Shown piece by piece: positions 25,136-55,695 of a stretch of DNA of 63,990 bases. Made by a program: the position numbers and the translations under genes. Every line of letters starts with the position of its first letter. Position 1 is the stretch's first letter. This stretch comes from a virus (lineage: Duplodnaviria; Caudoviricetes). Location: positions 1 through 63,990 of IMG/VR virus record IMGVR_UViG_3300010158_000067; one strand, 5' to 3'. The notes beneath the pieces are model-generated. The model worked only from the letters and a program-made list of their open reading frames with translations. It did no database searches and was not told the origin of the DNA.

Positions 25136-25140
25136 AGTAT

Positions 25141-25231
25141 AGCAGGGTAGAGAAGTCTGGTCGATCTCGCGACGCTCATAACGTCGAGGCTACTTAAACG
25201 CGCTAAAGTGGTTCAAATCCCGCCCCTGCAA
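25141..25231 (+). tRNA. tRNA-Met(CAT), initiator-like but atypical (long variable region, weak T-stem); possibly a pseudogene
   Basis: GCAGGG/CCCTGC acceptor with 1:72 mismatch, CGACG-CTCATAA-CGTCG anticodon arm, GGTTCAAATCC. Confidence 0.7.
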
Positions 25232-26021
25232 CTTTTTTAATTTCTTCAAAAGCTTCAGTTGGATTATAAAACCTATCTTCAAAAATAAGAACCTTCCATC
25301 CAACTGAAGTTAATACATCAATTTTAATTTTATCTCTATTTTGAACTTGCGGTAACGAATGATTTCTTAAAGAAAGCTGTTTATAATGCCAAGGTCCATT
25401 CCAAAGAATGGCAATATTATAATCATCAATAATAATATCTGCATCCCAGCCATCTTTAATAATTTCATTATGTCTTACTGATTTAAAGTAATTTTTACAG
25501 AGTTGAAATAAATTTATTTCATCTTTGGATCTTCTAGTTATTTTTGAAGCTGAATTCCTGCCTCCTAGGCTAGAACCTTGCTTCTTTCTTATTGAAGAGC
25601 AGTCTTTTGAGCAACATAAATTTTTGTAAGTTTTAAATTCTTTACCGCAGTTTTTGCAAAAAGCAGTTTTTTCAGTTTTTTTGGGTGTAAAAATTTTACA
25701 TTCATCACACTTGGCAAGTTTTGAATTCGCGTTCTTTCCAATTTTAATATTTTTATTACATATATTGCAAAAGCAATCTTTTGTTAAGCCTTTTTGATAA
25801 AAACTTCTTGATTGCAAGCGTTGTGTATTATTATATTTGCCAGCACATGATTTGCCACAAAATTTTCTCTCTATTCTTGAGGCGGGAGCCAAATAAGGCA
25901 TTTCGTTTTGACAAAAAAGACATTTATCTGGATTTAGTTTGTATAGCTCTTGACTTTGTTCAAATTTTTGTTTATGAAATTTGCCAGCGCCTAAATTCCA
26001 TCTTTCTGTTCTTGATTTCAT
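25203..26021 (-). CDS. Free-standing homing endonuclease-like protein (Cys-rich zinc fingers + Vsr/DUF559-like nuclease domain)
   Basis: CxxC/FCxxxC repeats; ADIII...IAILWNGPWHY...RDKIK...GWKVL. Confidence 0.7.
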   Translation of the reverse strand: MKSRTERWNLGAGKFHKQKFEQSQELYKLNPDKCLFCQNEMPYLAPASRIERKFCGKSCAGKYNNTQRLQSRSFYQKGLTKDCFCNICNKNIKIGKNANSKLAKCDECKIFTPKKTEKTAFCKNCGKEFKTYKNLCCSKDCSSIRKKQGSSLGGRNSASKITRRSKDEINLFQLCKNYFKSVRHNEIIKDGWDADIIIDDYNIAILWNGPWHYKQLSLRNHSLPQVQNRDKIKIDVLTSVGWKVLIFEDRFYNPTEAFEEIKKVAGAGFEPL

Positions 26022-26078
26022 AATATAAAATACATTTGCGGATAAGGTTTGTGAACTAAATGTTTTTAGCTAAAACCA

Positions 26079-26367
26079 CTTTCTCAGTAACCACAAACCC
26101 ACTGGTAGTAGGTTTTGCTGTAATTGGAATGTAGCAGCATAGAAATCCTGCTGAGAAAGCGACACATGCCATTCTGTGAATACGGAGTGCTTGGTCTGGG
26201 ATGTCTCAGACGACTGAGTTGTGTGACTAATCGGAGAGACGATTATTTGAGTTCCCCCAATTGGGGTGCGACACCTGCCAGTGGCTCCATGCCGCTGAGA
26301 TCTGATTTGGCATAGCACCTGCTGCTTACGCTAGTTGGGTCAGTGGTGTGACACTGGGAGAGACTAG
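26079..26367 (+). ncRNA. Candidate structured ncRNA(s): two tandem units sharing GCGACAC...GTGTGAC-stem(GAGAGA)
   Basis: GC-rich intergenic stretch with multiple G-U-containing stems and repeated boundary motifs at 26159/26221 and 26268/26346. Confidence 0.6.
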
Positions 26368-26386
26368 AGTTCTTTTAAATTTAAAT

Positions 26387-26812
26387 GGGGGTGAAAGGAT
26401 TCGACTATATCGAAGTTCTTAACTAACATGCAATGGATAGGATTGACCATTAAAAAACAATTCAAAAAATCAAACGCCGAAGATAATACTGACGCATTGT
26501 TGGCAGAAGCTAGCTACATCATCAATAACTTTGATGAATTCCTCGTTGAGGAAGAAGTAGAAGCTGCTGTTTAACAAAACAGAAGCGGACTCCGTTAAAA
26601 CTTCTGTAAAACGCAACGGGTAGGGTAAGATCGTGAAACCCTGAGAAAAAAATCGAGAGTGACTGGTAGACTCCGCGCCAGTAGGTAGACTCTAAAAGTA
26701 GGTGATGTACCACGACAACCTTTAGTCATCAAATGTCGAACGCATCTAAGCATGTAAGTAGTTAGTTACGTATTAGATATAGGACTCGGCTTCGATGCCG
26801 ACACCTCCACCA
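26387..26812 (+). ncRNA. ssrA: tmRNA
   Basis: 5' GGGGGTGAAAGGATTCGAC, 3' TCGGCTTCGATGCCGA-CACCTCC-ACCA with G3-U70 pair; tag ORF 26476-26574. Confidence 0.93.
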
Positions 26813-26815
26813 TTT

Positions 26816-26901
26816 GGGAGAGTATACCGTTAAGGAGACGGTCTAGACTGTAAATCTAGCATACTTGTATTCGGTGGGATCGTTACCCACATCTCCCACC
26901 A
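26816..26901 (+). tRNA. tRNA-Tyr(GTA)
   Basis: CTAGA-CTGTAAA-TCTAG arm, long variable arm, GTGGG-ATCGTTA-CCCAC, ends ACCA. Confidence 0.85.
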
Positions 26902-26924
26902 TTTTTCCTGTGTAAAATATTCTT

Positions 26925-28289
26925 ATGAAAGACTGTGGAAATCATCCAAACTCCTTTTCAACAAAGAGAGAGTTTTTAAATAATTTTGGTTGGGGGCTTG
27001 GAGGATTATCTCTAGCTTCAATTCTTGGAGTGAATCCAATAACTGCTGAAGCGGTTTCTCCACTCGCGGCAAAGCCATCTCACTTTCCAGTTAAGGCAAA
27101 AGCAGTAATTCAATTATTTGCTTCTGGTGCTCCATCTCAAGTAGATACTTTTGATTATAAACCAGAACTACAAAAGAGAGATGGAATGAAAGGTGATTAT
27201 GGTAATTTACTTGCTTCTCCTTTTAATTTTCCACAGTTTGGAAAGTCTGGTCTGCACATATCAGAAGTCTGGTCAAAATTAGGTCAGCACGCTGATAGCA
27301 TGGCTATTATCAATTCCATGCAAACTGATGTTCCAGATCATGGAATTGCAGCAAAGATGTTTAATACTGGATCGACTCAATTACCAAAACCAAGTTTAGG
27401 TAGTTGGCTTGCGTATGGATTGGGAACAACCAATCAAAATATGCCAGCGTTCATTACATTGAATGGCGCTCCAGAATGGAGACAGTGCGCGTTTCTTCCA
27501 GGCATGTTTCAAGGTTGTAACGTACAATATAAAACTGGAATGAAACCAGATGAAATTTTATCAAATTTAAGAAGTCAATTTTCTACTCTCGAAAGACAAA
27601 GAAGACAAATTGATTTTTCAAATATGCTAAATCATGAGCATATGAATAAATTGCAAAAAGATATTCAACTCGAATCTCGAATTGAATCTTTTGAAACTGC
27701 ATTCAAAATGCAAACCGAAGCCACGGACGCTTTTGATCTTTCTAAAGAACCAGAGAATGTTAAAGATTTATATGGTCGCAACGAAGAAGGAAATAAGATG
27801 ATGGTTGCTCGTCGTCTAGTCGAGCGTGGAGTTCGTTTCGTTCAAGTGCAAGTTGGTGGATACGATCATCATTCCGATATCAAAACGGCAATGACGAACA
27901 CTGCAATGCGATATGACCAAGCTTTTGCTGGACTTTTAACTGATTTAAAACAAAGAGGGTTGCTTGATTCTGTTTTAGTTATTTGGGGTGGAGAATTCGG
28001 AAGGACTGTTACTGCTGGAGGGGGCGCAGGAGCCCCTGGACGCGATCACAACGGCAAAGCATTTTCCGTATGGATGGCGGGCGGCAACGTCAAGGGAGGT
28101 CAACGCTATGGTGAAACTGATGAAACAGGCGGCAAATCAATTAAGGATATTGTTCATATACATGATCTTCATGCTACCATTCTTAACCTTATGGGCTTTG
28201 ATCACACTAAGTTGACATATAACTACAATGGTCGCGAATTTAGATTGACAGATAATTTCGGCAATGTTATAAAAGAGTTAGTTGCTTAG
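26925..28289 (+). CDS. DUF1501 family (sulfatase-like) protein with Tat-like leader
   Basis: TKREFL leader; AKAVIQLF..GAPSQVDTFDYKP; ARRLVERGVRFV; GYDHH; LKQRGLLD..LVIWGGEFGRT; GRDH; HDLHATIL. Confidence 0.88.
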   Translation: MKDCGNHPNSFSTKREFLNNFGWGLGGLSLASILGVNPITAEAVSPLAAKPSHFPVKAKAVIQLFASGAPSQVDTFDYKPELQKRDGMKGDYGNLLASPFNFPQFGKSGLHISEVWSKLGQHADSMAIINSMQTDVPDHGIAAKMFNTGSTQLPKPSLGSWLAYGLGTTNQNMPAFITLNGAPEWRQCAFLPGMFQGCNVQYKTGMKPDEILSNLRSQFSTLERQRRQIDFSNMLNHEHMNKLQKDIQLESRIESFETAFKMQTEATDAFDLSKEPENVKDLYGRNEEGNKMMVARRLVERGVRFVQVQVGGYDHHSDIKTAMTNTAMRYDQAFAGLLTDLKQRGLLDSVLVIWGGEFGRTVTAGGGAGAPGRDHNGKAFSVWMAGGNVKGGQRYGETDETGGKSIKDIVHIHDLHATILNLMGFDHTKLTYNYNGREFRLTDNFGNVIKELVA

Positions 28290-28338: not shown

Positions 28339-28413
28339 ACCTACTGACGCGCAAGGTGTGCGGTCGCTCTGTTAAAGCGTATGAGCTTGGTTCAATTCCA
28401 AGAGTAGGTGCCA
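28339..28413 (+). tRNA. tRNA-Asn(GTT)
   Basis: ACCTACT/AGTAGGT acceptor, CGCT-CTGTTAA-AGCG, CTTGG-TTCAATT-CCAAG, GCCA end. Confidence 0.85.
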
Positions 28414-28418
28414 CTTTC

Positions 28419-28495
28419 GCCTTCATAGCTCAATTGGCTAGAGCAGGGCTTTTGTAAAGCTCAGGTTTCCAGTTCGACCCTAGATGAAGGCTCCA
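28419..28495 (+). tRNA. tRNA-Thr(TGT)
   Basis: GCCTTCA/TGAAGGC acceptor, GGGCT-TTTGTAA-AGCTC, TCCA end. Confidence 0.88.
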
Positions 28496-53936: not shown

Positions 53937-53946
53937 TTAAAAGAAG

Positions 53947-54018
53947 TGGTTCTAGCTGGATTCGAACCAGCAATAATTCTTTAGAAGAGAACTGTGATAT
54001 CCCTTTCACCATAGAACC
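53947..54018 (-). tRNA. tRNA-Arg(TCT), no encoded CCA
   Basis: GGTTCTA/TAGAACC, GTTCT-CTTCTAA-AGAAT, GCTGG-TTCGAAT-CCAGC. Confidence 0.88.
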
Positions 54019-54256
54019 ATTGTTCGCTTATGACAATATCAGATCCTATAGGACAGTCAACCAGAAACTTGAAAAGTTTCTGGAGTGGTGCGTAATAATA
54101 GAGCTTGACCAGGGGCACCCCTGGTTGTAGGCAACAAAAAACCTCTGTCCCACAGGGACAGAGGTTCCTCTACTCGGCTCACATTCCTTTCGAGCTACCA
54201 GACATAGGCAGTTTGCCAGCACCTCTCGCTTTTTATCTGAGCGAGATTAAAAAAAA

Positions 54257-54331
54257 TGGTGGATAGGGAGGGACTCGAACCTTCAACCAACGCCTTAAAA
54301 GGGCGCTGCTCTACCATTGAGCTACCTATCC
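54257..54331 (-). tRNA. tRNA-Lys(TTT)
   Basis: GGATAGG/CCTATCC, GCGCC-CTTTTAA-GGCGT, ACCA end. Confidence 0.92.
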
Positions 54332-54397
54332 TTTTGCCAGAGCCTCACCCCGCACAAGCGGGGGAGGATGGATGACAACAAACCACCAACACCGAAA

Positions 54398-54688
54398 TCA
54401 TCTTGCGGACTCGAAGCAGTGCCCAGAGTGGGCATCTAGGTAGCGCCGCAAAGAACCAATGTTTGTCCATTGCACCTGCCTCTGCGCTCTTGCTTTGAGC
54501 CAAGCCTCATCCCCAAGTGGGTAGTAATCGCGAGAATGAAAATCTATTTCTTGAAACGCATCTTCAAACTTCTGAAGCGCTTTCAACGCTTCAAAGTATT
54601 GATGACCCAACTTAGAACCATCATTCCCATTCATGTGAATGAGGGGAAGTATCATTTCAAGATTTTGTTCTGCAATGTATGTTTTCAT
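54398..54688 (-). CDS. Hypothetical phage protein
   Basis: PLIHMNG...HSRDYYP. Confidence 0.65.
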   Translation of the reverse strand: MKTYIAEQNLEMILPLIHMNGNDGSKLGHQYFEALKALQKFEDAFQEIDFHSRDYYPLGDEAWLKARAQRQVQWTNIGSLRRYLDAHSGHCFESAR

Positions 54689-54726
54689 GTTTTTATGTTT
54701 TTATGTTTTTATGTTTTTATGTTTTT
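54687..54726. repeat. Microsatellite (ATGTTTTT)x5
   Basis: Five perfect 8-bp units. Confidence 0.95.
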
Positions 54727-54791
54727 AACTAATTGAAATTGGTAGCTAGGGCGGGACTCGAACCCGCACGCTCTAAAGAGCATCAGATTTT

Positions 54792-55524
54792 CTTACTACT
54801 ATAGCTTTCGCTATCCTTGCGTTGTAGTCTGGACTATATCATCACCTTTGTCAAGAGGTGTCTCGTCTTTAGTCTCTGAACCTTCTCCATTTAAGGAGCT
54901 TGGCTGCTGATTGACCAATTCACTCAATTTTTTAACTTTCGCATTCGTCATTTCTAACCATGCTGTAGTTTGAGAGACTCTAAGGTTATCCCAGCAGTTT
55001 ACGAGATTCTCATTCTGGGATTTCTCCCAGATGACTCGCTGACCTCGCAAAAATTTATGTAATTTTCCATGAGCTTGCCTAGTTATCAACATTAAGTTAT
55101 CTAAATCATTATTAAGTGGATTTTCATCTATATGATGAATAACTTCATTATAAGATAATTTTCTACCTAATAGCTTTTCAGCTAAAACTCTATGTTTATT
55201 TCTAGATGTTTTCGAATCAAAAGAATATTTATTTTTTTCAAAACCTGTTTTGAAACTTTCTTTGTAGCATGAAGGGCAAAGAATTTGTTGCTTTCTCCAC
55301 GCCTTAAAAGAAGATTTGCAGGCTTCGCATTCCGCTGGAAGAAATCGTCTACCTAATTTTTCATAACGATCTTTAGATTTTTTCTTAGCTAAAGAAAGAT
55401 GACAAGTTTTGCAAACTCTTCTTCCTATTTCTCTTGGGCCGCTACATGAAATACATATTAGTTTATCCATGTCTTATATTACACTGAAAGACACAGATAT
55501 TCTATTTTATTTTTGCGAAAAGGC
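54792..55524 (-). mobile_element. Group I self-splicing intron (733 nt) with homing endonuclease ORF
   Basis: Exon ends in U, intron ends in G; core elements AACTGCTGGG (P), AATCAGCAG (Q), TTCAGAGACTA (R), GATATAGTCC (S). Confidence 0.88.
54811..55470 (-). CDS. Intron-encoded HNH homing endonuclease
   Basis: CxxC fingers; HRVLAE...VIHHIDENPLNNDLDNL...H...H. Confidence 0.88.
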   Translation of the reverse strand: MDKLICISCSGPREIGRRVCKTCHLSLAKKKSKDRYEKLGRRFLPAECEACKSSFKAWRKQQILCPSCYKESFKTGFEKNKYSFDSKTSRNKHRVLAEKLLGRKLSYNEVIHHIDENPLNNDLDNLMLITRQAHGKLHKFLRGQRVIWEKSQNENLVNCWDNLRVSQTTAWLEMTNAKVKKLSELVNQQPSSLNGEGSETKDETPLDKGDDIVQTTTQG

Positions 55525-55619
55525 AAGTCTGATGTGTCTGCCATTTCACCACCTAGCCATTGTTGTTAAAGAACTCTGAGTGATACTAACAGACATTCAC
55601 TCTATGTCAACCGAAAAAG

Positions 55620-55695
55620 TGGTGCGCCAAGTTGGGATTGAACCAACGACCAAGGAATTATGAGTTCCCTGCTCTGACCACTGAGCTATTGGCGC
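55620..55695 (-). tRNA. tRNA(CAT), probably Ile2 (lysidine) rather than Met
   Basis: GCGCCAA/TTGGCGC, GGGAA-CTCATAA-TTCCT; D and variable regions resemble ileX-type tRNAs. Confidence 0.85.

Follow-up and report, generated by a model that had tools for sequence, protein, structure and literature searches.

Tandem structured RNA units beside the tmRNA gene of a tailed phage, and a candidate family of small phage-borne RNAs

We analysed a stretch of 63,990 bases, the IMG/VR virus record IMGVR_UViG_3300010158_000067 (completeness rating 49%; hereafter the window), which carries tail, structural and auxiliary genes as in a large tailed phage. Directly upstream of its transfer-messenger RNA (tmRNA) gene the window holds two tandem structured units, unit 1 at 26159-26245 and unit 2 at 26268-26367, both on the plus strand. 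A search of viral sequences returned many related units, and we consider it very probable that together they form a real, expressed and structured RNA family, one that probably serves some function. We found no catalogued or published equivalent of this family or of its architecture; precedent exists only in the general form of an orphan phage RNA beside tRNAs.

A family of phage RNAs with covarying helices

The first-pass annotation of the window had described boundary motifs shared by the two units, and both the motifs and their coordinates proved exact. The first motif, GCGACACNTGCC, occurs twice in the window (26159 and 26268, plus strand), against 0.01 occurrences expected from shuffles. 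The second, GTGTGAC followed after 3-8 nucleotides (nt) by GAGAGA, also occurs twice (26221 and 26346, plus strand), against 0.00 expected. A viral contig collection was searched with a pattern of 18 fixed nt, consisting of GCGACACNTGCC, a gap of 45-75 nt and GTGTGAC, and at least 120 viral loci were found. By a rough estimate, 18 fixed bases with this gap could yield tens of chance matches in such a collection. Among the matches listed, 107 of 126 are followed within 16 nt by [GA]AGAG, a feature outside the pattern. The interiors of the matches fold into one or two hairpins, which differ in sequence with the pairing kept.

A covariance model, R1, was built from 42 homogeneous units with a hand-written structure. 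In the seed alignment, made with MAFFT, 92.8% of the pair cells are standard pairs, as compared with 80.2% when partners were shuffled and 32-42% when partners were slid by 1-3 columns, and double-sided changes occur in 16 of the 26 pairs. At E<=1e-4, R1 recovered 129 units, 124 of them distinct, in 75 of 77 non-redundant sources (76 loci and the window). In the R1-fitted alignment the paired fraction is 95.6% of cells (30-41% with slid partners), and double changes occur in 20 of the 26 pairs; being fitted to the model, it is biased towards the structure, and the figure from the MAFFT seed is the more independent one. The covariance-model search proposed at first pass thus returned many homologues with compensatory changes. 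The preference for the plus strand, claimed from G-U pairs, was also borne out. G-U pairs are frequent at helix positions and dominate several of them (for example, U-G in 61 and G-U in 42 of 124 rows), and the 364-nt gap in which the units lie folds better on the plus strand (-107.7 kcal/mol, z -3.3, with none of 100 shuffles as good) than on the minus strand (-87.9 kcal/mol, z -2.0).

The description of the structured RNA as unrecognised held against Rfam 15 (4227 models). At E<=10, positions 25950-27000 of the window matched only the tmRNA family and three noise matches of 16.6-19 bits; at the gathering threshold, 12 related loci gave tRNA and tmRNA only; and two arrays searched at E<=10 gave 0 matches and 2 noise matches. 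No description was found in the literature on phage RNA motifs, on the motif sequence or on non-coding RNAs (ncRNAs) of tmRNA and tRNA clusters, supplementary files not being covered. Among cultured phages (INPHARED, blastn), the window region had no match, and a 4-unit array had short weak matches only. On two of these weakly matching phages R1 scored at most 12.9 bits (E 0.087, Gordonia phage Cafasso), and they were left out of the family count. The Cafasso match (L144, 2320-2700; 75.5-75.9 kb of the record) falls in intergenic DNA that is unannotated and shows tRNA-like T arms; it consists of GGUACACC..GGUGUGAC and a hairpin with a GGAUAGAC loop. Here a cultured phage may carry a distant relative.

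Architecture of a unit

Each unit consists of a clamp helix (P1, GNGAC-ACC / GGU-GNGAC), a junction (UGC and AGU), an insert of 0-2 hairpins (P2 and P3) and a last hairpin (P4) with a GAGAGA loop. Across the 124 distinct units the invariant or nearly invariant positions are G1 C2 G3 A4 C5 A6 C7 (C/A)8 U9 G10 C11 on the 5' side, A G U (G/U) G U G U G A C on the 3' side, and the closing G-C pair and GAGAGA loop of the last hairpin. Units outside the reach of the search pattern retain this architecture. A signature search distinguished five P1 classes, of which the last three given here break the pattern. The commonest class, GCGAC-ACC / GGU-GUGAC, has 111 units; GCGAC-ACA / UGU-GUGAC has 13, GCGAC-ACC / GGU-GCGAC and GGGAC-GCC / GGC-GUGAC have 11 each, and GUGAC-ACC / GGU-GUGAC has five. 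The inner three pairs of P1 covary, C-G being replaced by A-U and A-U by G-C. Outside them, each strand contributes five bases reading GNGAC, which oppose one another with G-C at the ends, A opposite N and G opposite G in the middle, so that P1 can be read as a quasi-palindromic clamp, its loop lined by the invariant UGC and AGU.

What lies inside the clamp is optional. The insert may be 3-9 nt only, as in the units of 40-41 nt, or one hairpin, or two hairpins, around the same core; the predicted fold is accordingly a hairpin, a two-way or a three-way junction, followed by the additional hairpin, whose stem of 4-6 base pairs (bp) covaries freely. Unit length ranges from 40 to 101 nt with no fixed period. 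Inspection by eye of several units revealed no conserved complementarity between the P2 and P3 loops. For an alternative GUGU/ACAC terminator after P4 there was a modest A/C enrichment at positions +1 and +2 (59 and 60 of 125), as placed by an imperfect stem finder.

The two units of the window

R1 matches exactly two places in the window, units 1 and 2, both of the two-hairpin type. Unit 1 was matched at 26159-26244 with 89.6 bits (E 6.4e-18), a score that is partly by construction since the unit belonged to the seed; its minimum free energy fold agrees with the family structure. P1 pairs 26159-26166 with 26220-26227 (GCGACACA / UGUGUGAC), the junction UGC occupies 26167-26169, and P2 pairs 26170-26177 with 26182-26189. 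Unit 2 stood outside the seed and was matched with 40.8 bits (E 3.9e-07); near-identical copies of it occur in two other loci (L005 and L090). Its P1 pairs 26268-26275 with 26345-26352 (GCGACACC / GGUGUGAC), its P2 pairs 26279-26285 with 26291-26297 around the loop UCCAU, and its P3, at about 26299-26341, is long and branched.

Most of the hairpins drawn at first pass correspond to helices of the family. Those with GAGAGA loops are the P4 hairpins, TAATCG/CGATTA in unit 1 (26228-26233 / 26240-26245, loop 26234-26239) and CTGG/CTAG in unit 2 (26354-26357 / 26364-26367, loop 26358-26363). The inner hairpins CATTCTGT/ACGGAGTG and CAGTGGC/GCCGCTG are the P2 helices. For the second hairpin of unit 1, the outer register CTTGGTC/GACTGAG did not stand; the family backs the overlapping GTCTGGG/CTCAGAC as P3 (26194-26200 / 26205-26211). 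The 23-nt spacer between the units contains a perfect 12-nt palindrome, CCCCAATTGGGG (26255-26266, plus strand), and this spacer hairpin is kept in five related loci (L005, L067, L072, L079 and L090). The palindrome could form a hairpin or serve as a site of RNA-RNA dimerisation.

Unit 2 ends 19 nt before the start of the tmRNA gene (26387-26812, plus strand; ARAGORN, and Rfam RF00023 with 84.9 bits). The tandem arrangement of the units on the plus strand next to tmRNA was confirmed. The units and the tmRNA probably share one stable-RNA transcription unit. In 25900-27000 we counted three promoter-like sites (-35/-10 hexamers, sigma-70) against 2.6 expected, none of them within the units, and no terminator-like site (a GC-rich hairpin followed by a U run). 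The 364-nt gap, bounded by a 272-amino acid (aa) open reading frame (ORF) and the tmRNA gene, contains no convincing gene, and its G+C content (GC) is 0.45-0.53 as compared with about 0.3 in the flanks. Two ORFs that overlap the units, at 26124-26315 (plus strand, 63 aa, TTG start) and 26070-26318 (minus strand, 82 aa, GTG start), were rejected as coding because the homologues differ by hairpin-sized indels and paired substitutions. A tRNA or tRNA-like element was likewise rejected: ARAGORN and RF00005 call nothing at 26079-26367, and the units have no cloverleaf.

Representation in environmental RNA libraries

Four freshwater or lake studies supplied RNA-library contigs with at least 90% likeness to the window. 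These cover 26420-26856, with the tmRNA, and 26080-26352, where they span unit 1, the spacer, the greater part of unit 2 and, upstream, a conserved element described below (the U element). Word depths over 26080-26352 and over the tmRNA were 4.8-9.4 versus 5.4 and 15-20 versus 53 in two of the studies, and 11 versus 13-94 and 52-62 versus 44 in the other two. All 24 runs listed bear freshwater, lake or estuary labels. The sources of the contigs are relatives 95-99% alike, in which the 3' end of a tRNA stands directly before the position corresponding to 26080. The contigs span neither the link between unit 2 and the tmRNA nor the flanking genes; the gene order of the relatives differs, and we attach no weight to this. 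We regard the coverage as moderate support, and no more, for an accumulation of the units like that of a stable RNA, and the earlier suggestion of a small stable RNA fits the depths, which resemble those of tmRNA.

Genomic context

The arrays comprise 1-5 units, and in 75 of 75 loci all units lie on one strand. Spacers are mostly 6-9 nt and U-rich; those of the window's clade are 19-23 nt long and carry a CCCCAAUUGGGG hairpin. In 39 of the 75 loci the array lies 8-199 nt after the stop codon of an SU10-type major capsid gene, on the same strand and in the gene order portal, scaffold, capsid, array; 25 of these 39 arrays start 8-13 nt after the stop, and four of the 39 also have a nearby tRNA. 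Another 18 loci have only a tRNA or tmRNA within 500 nt, and 18 have neither capsid nor tRNA or tmRNA in the flanking DNA examined. All 47 units of the tRNA-bearing loci have their nearest tRNA on their own strand, and for 46 of them it lies within 500 nt. A tRNA-Met(CAT) is found within 500 nt in 19 of 22 tRNA-context loci and is the nearest gene in 11; the copies that we read have the C1-A72 mismatch typical of initiator tRNA. Downstream neighbours vary (tRNA, tmRNA or unrelated ORFs), and where an ORF directly follows the array, the last GAGAG usually stands 12-20 nt before the start codon.

Each of ten phage records of 39-227 kb, eight of them rated 100% complete, contains a single main array. 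The smaller five, complete phages of 39-43 kb, have 2-6 matches each, clustered at one place apart from at most one weak stray, and the five larger records of 87-227 kb (three complete) have 1-3 matches each at a single place. One array per genome, at heavily transcribed sites and with unrelated followers, argues for an RNA gene rather than a general signal. A strict pattern found only 12 places in 185,579 species genomes, namely 11 contigs of metagenome-assembled genomes, from many phyla, and one Gemmataceae scaffold, and therefore the family is essentially phage-borne. None of the 12 places has an SU10 capsid gene; four have a tRNA-Met nearby.

Possible functions

Orphan structured RNAs with such invariance and covariation are often ribozymes, riboswitches or protein-binding regulators. 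Our tentative preference, held with rather less than even confidence, is that the units are stable RNAs that act in trans by binding a host factor. The units would be transcribed within a stable-RNA precursor, in the window alongside tRNAs and tmRNA, and in small phages downstream of the highly expressed capsid gene; the enzymes that mature tRNA clusters would cut them apart at the U-rich spacers of 6-9 nt. Once excised, they would act in trans: the invariant clamp and the GAGAGA hairpin would form a docking platform for a conserved factor that is not phage-encoded (a host protein or ribonucleoprotein), possibly linked to translation given the company of tRNA-Met, tRNA and tmRNA, and the variable hairpins, which differ between the units of an array, would be displayed.

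A comparison of proteomes bears on the location of such a partner. The array-bearing phages compared are 40-kb SU10-like phages with a GC of 0.51-0.52 and phages of 64-204 kb with a GC of 0.35-0.41. The only families that two 40-kb phages have in common with the window and with phages of 87 and 204 kb are a deoxynucleoside monophosphate (dNMP) kinase, an AAA_5 ATPase, DUF7192, DnaB and ThyX. As only families of nucleotide metabolism and replication are common, any partner is not phage-encoded, and is either a host component or absent, the RNA acting alone. The ORFs just downstream of arrays (families of 115, 78 and 55 aa) have no PHROG match, and one such ORF encodes a DNA methyltransferase. 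The proteins downstream of arrays have no homologue in the window except a syntenic DUF1501 protein, apart from one weak partial match (E 0.005).

Several considerations weigh against action in trans on a host factor. No binding partner was identified, and both the excision and the action in trans are inferred. The spacing from the capsid stop (39 of 75 loci, 25 of them at 8-13 nt) and the GAGAG at 12-20 nt before ORFs would suit a cis element equally well. The approximately 30 invariant nt, some of them base-paired, also resemble a catalytic core or a ligand pocket, and the invariance is partly forced, since 18 of the positions were fixed by the seeding pattern. Finally, the RNA evidence consists of contigs from relatives 95-99% alike, gives no RNA ends and possibly includes some DNA.

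More boldly, the module could be a new functional RNA class, either a self-cleaving ribozyme that punctuates stable-RNA and capsid transcripts or a hairpin-displaying scaffold on a universal host machine, spread horizontally among unrelated phages of 39-227 kb; we hold this to be doubtful, roughly one chance in a few. For the scaffold, the translation apparatus is a possibility and the obvious candidate, in view of the company of initiator-like tRNA-Met, tRNA and tmRNA. The family is of interest in several respects. It is widespread (at least 120 viral loci) and small, the minimal units of 41 nt defining its core. Its presence in phages that share almost no other genes suggests a link to some fundamental part of the host, or an RNA that acts on its own, and the repeated association with initiator-like tRNA and tmRNA hints at an unexplored action of phages on translation. 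With the covariance model, annotators can also label a region at present left empty or misread as small ORFs.

The catalytic alternative, taken by itself, is unlikely, as judged from the sequence. Under it the units would be a new class of small self-cleaving ribozyme in which the clamp, the junction and the GAGAGA loop form the active site and the variable hairpins are peripheral; tandem units would then free the 3' end of the capsid mRNA and the 5' leaders of downstream tRNAs, tmRNA and mRNA. The proposal accounts well for some 30 invariant nt around covarying helices with optional peripheral stems, for tandem phage copies at the boundaries of the capsid ORF, the tRNAs and the next ORF, and for a proteome comparison that revealed no protein partner, and 40-100 nt is the size range of known small ribozymes. 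It fits less well with the invariant base pairs within P1, unusual for ribozyme helices, and with the RNA-library contigs, which run uncut through unit 1 and the junction of units 1 and 2; the latter is a weak objection, since rare precursors may supply the contigs. No Rfam ribozyme family matched at E<=10. A hammerhead was rejected: the junction bases are UGC and AGU, the core boxes CUGANGA/GAAA of its three-way junction are not among the conserved columns, and there is no Rfam match. Theta ribozymes, which resemble that of hepatitis delta virus (HDV), are small structured RNAs within phage tRNA regions with a proposed role in transcript processing (PMC10879173). The present units, in contrast, match no HDV family of Rfam, and the double-pseudoknot layout of P1-P1.1-P2-P3-P4, in which the 3' strand of P1 comes immediately after P3, does not suit units of 41 nt, which have no P3 and no 3' partner for P2; by our own reading, the nested HDV-type fold cannot be drawn on them, and HDV-like ribozymes, theta included, were rejected.

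About equally improbable is a cis-acting element of the transcript, such as a punctuation site recognised by a host RNase of the P, E or III type, a stabiliser of the capsid mRNA 3' end, a translational operator or a riboswitch. The start of the array 8-13 nt after the capsid stop in 25 of the 39 capsid-context loci would be explained, as would the U-rich spacers, which are like those of clustered tRNAs, and the GAGAG that usually precedes the next ATG by 12-20 nt, with a U-rich gap and no other Shine-Dalgarno-like sequence. However, a single main array per genome does not suit general punctuation or a start signal, the downstream neighbour varies, up to five units follow one another, the window region has no terminator-like site, and about 30 invariant nt across phages of 35-52% GC exceed what simple stabilisation by a hairpin would require.

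Much less probable is that the units mimic, or are antisense to, the ribosomal decoding centre, P1 resembling the top of helix 44 and serving as a decoy for attackers or binders of that site. The unit sequence UGGUGUGAC is a perfect 9-nt complement of positions 1405-1413 of Escherichia coli 16S rRNA, four base pairs (CACC/GGUG) and a closing G-C are in common with helix 44, and a universal target would fit conservation across unrelated phages. Yet one 9-mer match among the words tried against 4.6 kb of rRNA is not unexpected (estimated p about 0.2-0.4), the units have no counterpart of A1492 and A1493, and the highest R1 score on the E. coli rrn operon is 7.2 bits. Moreover, the two unit-bearing genomes with a 16S gene (Gemmataceae and Phycisphaerales), which may not be the true hosts, read GUCAAGCCA and GUCAAGUCA at 1405-1413, and their units keep ACACC. 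Mimicry of the sarcin-ricin loop or of 23S domain VI was rejected, with short common words only and the same R1 ceiling on that operon.

We give still less credence to an array of guide RNAs or templates (CRISPR-like, TIGR-Tas or UG27 reverse transcriptase), in which the ends would be the repeats and the insert would vary. The comparison is invited by phage-borne arrays whose ends are conserved and whose interiors differ, and phage ncRNA arrays of similar look have been described (PMC12045711; 10.64898/2026.09.22.753630). TIGR arrays too are tandem small RNA units in phages with conserved boxes; their units are of 36 nt, with 8-12-nt repeats and 9-nt spacers, adjoining the Nop-domain protein Tas (PMC12045711). 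UG27 arrays likewise have a variable number of structurally conserved units with short motifs bracketing a central stem, and are described as having units of about 135-167 nt with little sequence conservation, beside a reverse transcriptase (RT) and two accessory genes (10.64898/2026.09.22.753630). The present units differ from both: they measure 40-101 nt with no fixed period and about 30 invariant nt, and their inserts are structured hairpins conserved across phages rather than spacers. A Nop domain (PF01798) is absent from the window, itself 49% of a genome, RVT_1 (PF00078) is absent from the window and from four complete array-bearing genomes (0 of 5), and no nuclease or RT was found adjoining the arrays.

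Least credible of all is a DNA-level element (a promoter, a repeat or the end of a mobile element) or a chance resemblance; GTGACACT..GAGAG may loosely resemble promoters of single-subunit phage RNA polymerases, but compensatory changes, many G-U pairs on one strand only, one locus per genome and the expectations of 0.01 and 0.00 for the window motifs speak against it.

Other phage RNAs are also found near tRNA genes. GOLLD and ROOL are phage-borne orphan structured RNAs beside tRNA genes, of unknown function; they are single RNAs of several hundred nt and constitute Rfam families, whereas the present family is a module of 40-100 nt in arrays and has no Rfam match. The T4 species 1 and 2 RNAs (rnaC and rnaD), cited at first pass as a parallel, are small stable RNAs whose genes close a phage tRNA cluster and share its strand. 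The analogy of place holds, but the RNAs are unrelated: with filters off, R1 scored nothing at rnaC or rnaD, and its best match in T4 69000-75000 (6.6 bits) is located elsewhere.

A second conserved RNA and neighbouring features

The first-pass annotation had drawn an 11-bp stem, CTTTCTCAGTA/TGCTGAGAAAG, in front of unit 1. The stem is real and covaries in relatives, but it closes a separate element of about 80 nt directly 5' of unit 1, the U element (26080-26158, plus strand). This element has a closing stem, CUCAGUA/UGCUGAG, two inner hairpins and three invariant loops, UAACCAC, CUGGUA and UAAUUGGAAUGUAG. Its 12 distinct copies all lie directly 5' of the first unit in large-phage loci, mostly right after an initiator-like tRNA-Met. 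RNAalifold predicted 20 pairs, six with double changes, and the closing stem and an inner hairpin covary. The U element has no Rfam match and, on this comparative evidence, is a second uncatalogued conserved structured RNA rather than a leader stem.

In the window the 272-aa ORF (25203-26021, minus strand), which is Cys-rich and belongs to no Pfam family, sits between the U element and a tRNA-Met called by ARAGORN at 25140-25232 (plus strand); the latter is 93 nt long, with about 17 additional bases before the T arm. Relatives have the tRNA-Met directly beside the U element, and the ORF may be an inserted mobile gene.

On the other side of the units, the predicted tag of the tmRNA is unusually long, at 32 residues (AEDNTDALLAEASYIINNFDEFLVEEEVEAAV). 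Directly 3' of the tmRNA, at 26815-26899 (plus strand), visual inspection suggests a tRNA-Tyr(GTA)-like gene whose variable arm is long and which has an encoded CCA and the T loop ATCGTTA; it is called by neither ARAGORN nor Rfam, but ARAGORN calls a tRNA-Tyr after the units of the relative L067. The RNA cluster is followed immediately by the gene for the DUF1501 protein (26925-28289, plus strand; Pfam E 1.2e-130), which is syntenic in L067. The DUF1501 family is typical of Planctomycetes-like bacteria. Further on, ARAGORN calls a tRNA-Asn and a tRNA-Thr at 28339-28495 (plus strand), where the Rfam scan at gathering threshold reports no tRNA. A group I intron (RF00028, 60.5 bits) lies at 54816-55066 (minus strand), amid three minus-strand tRNA genes at 53946-55695.

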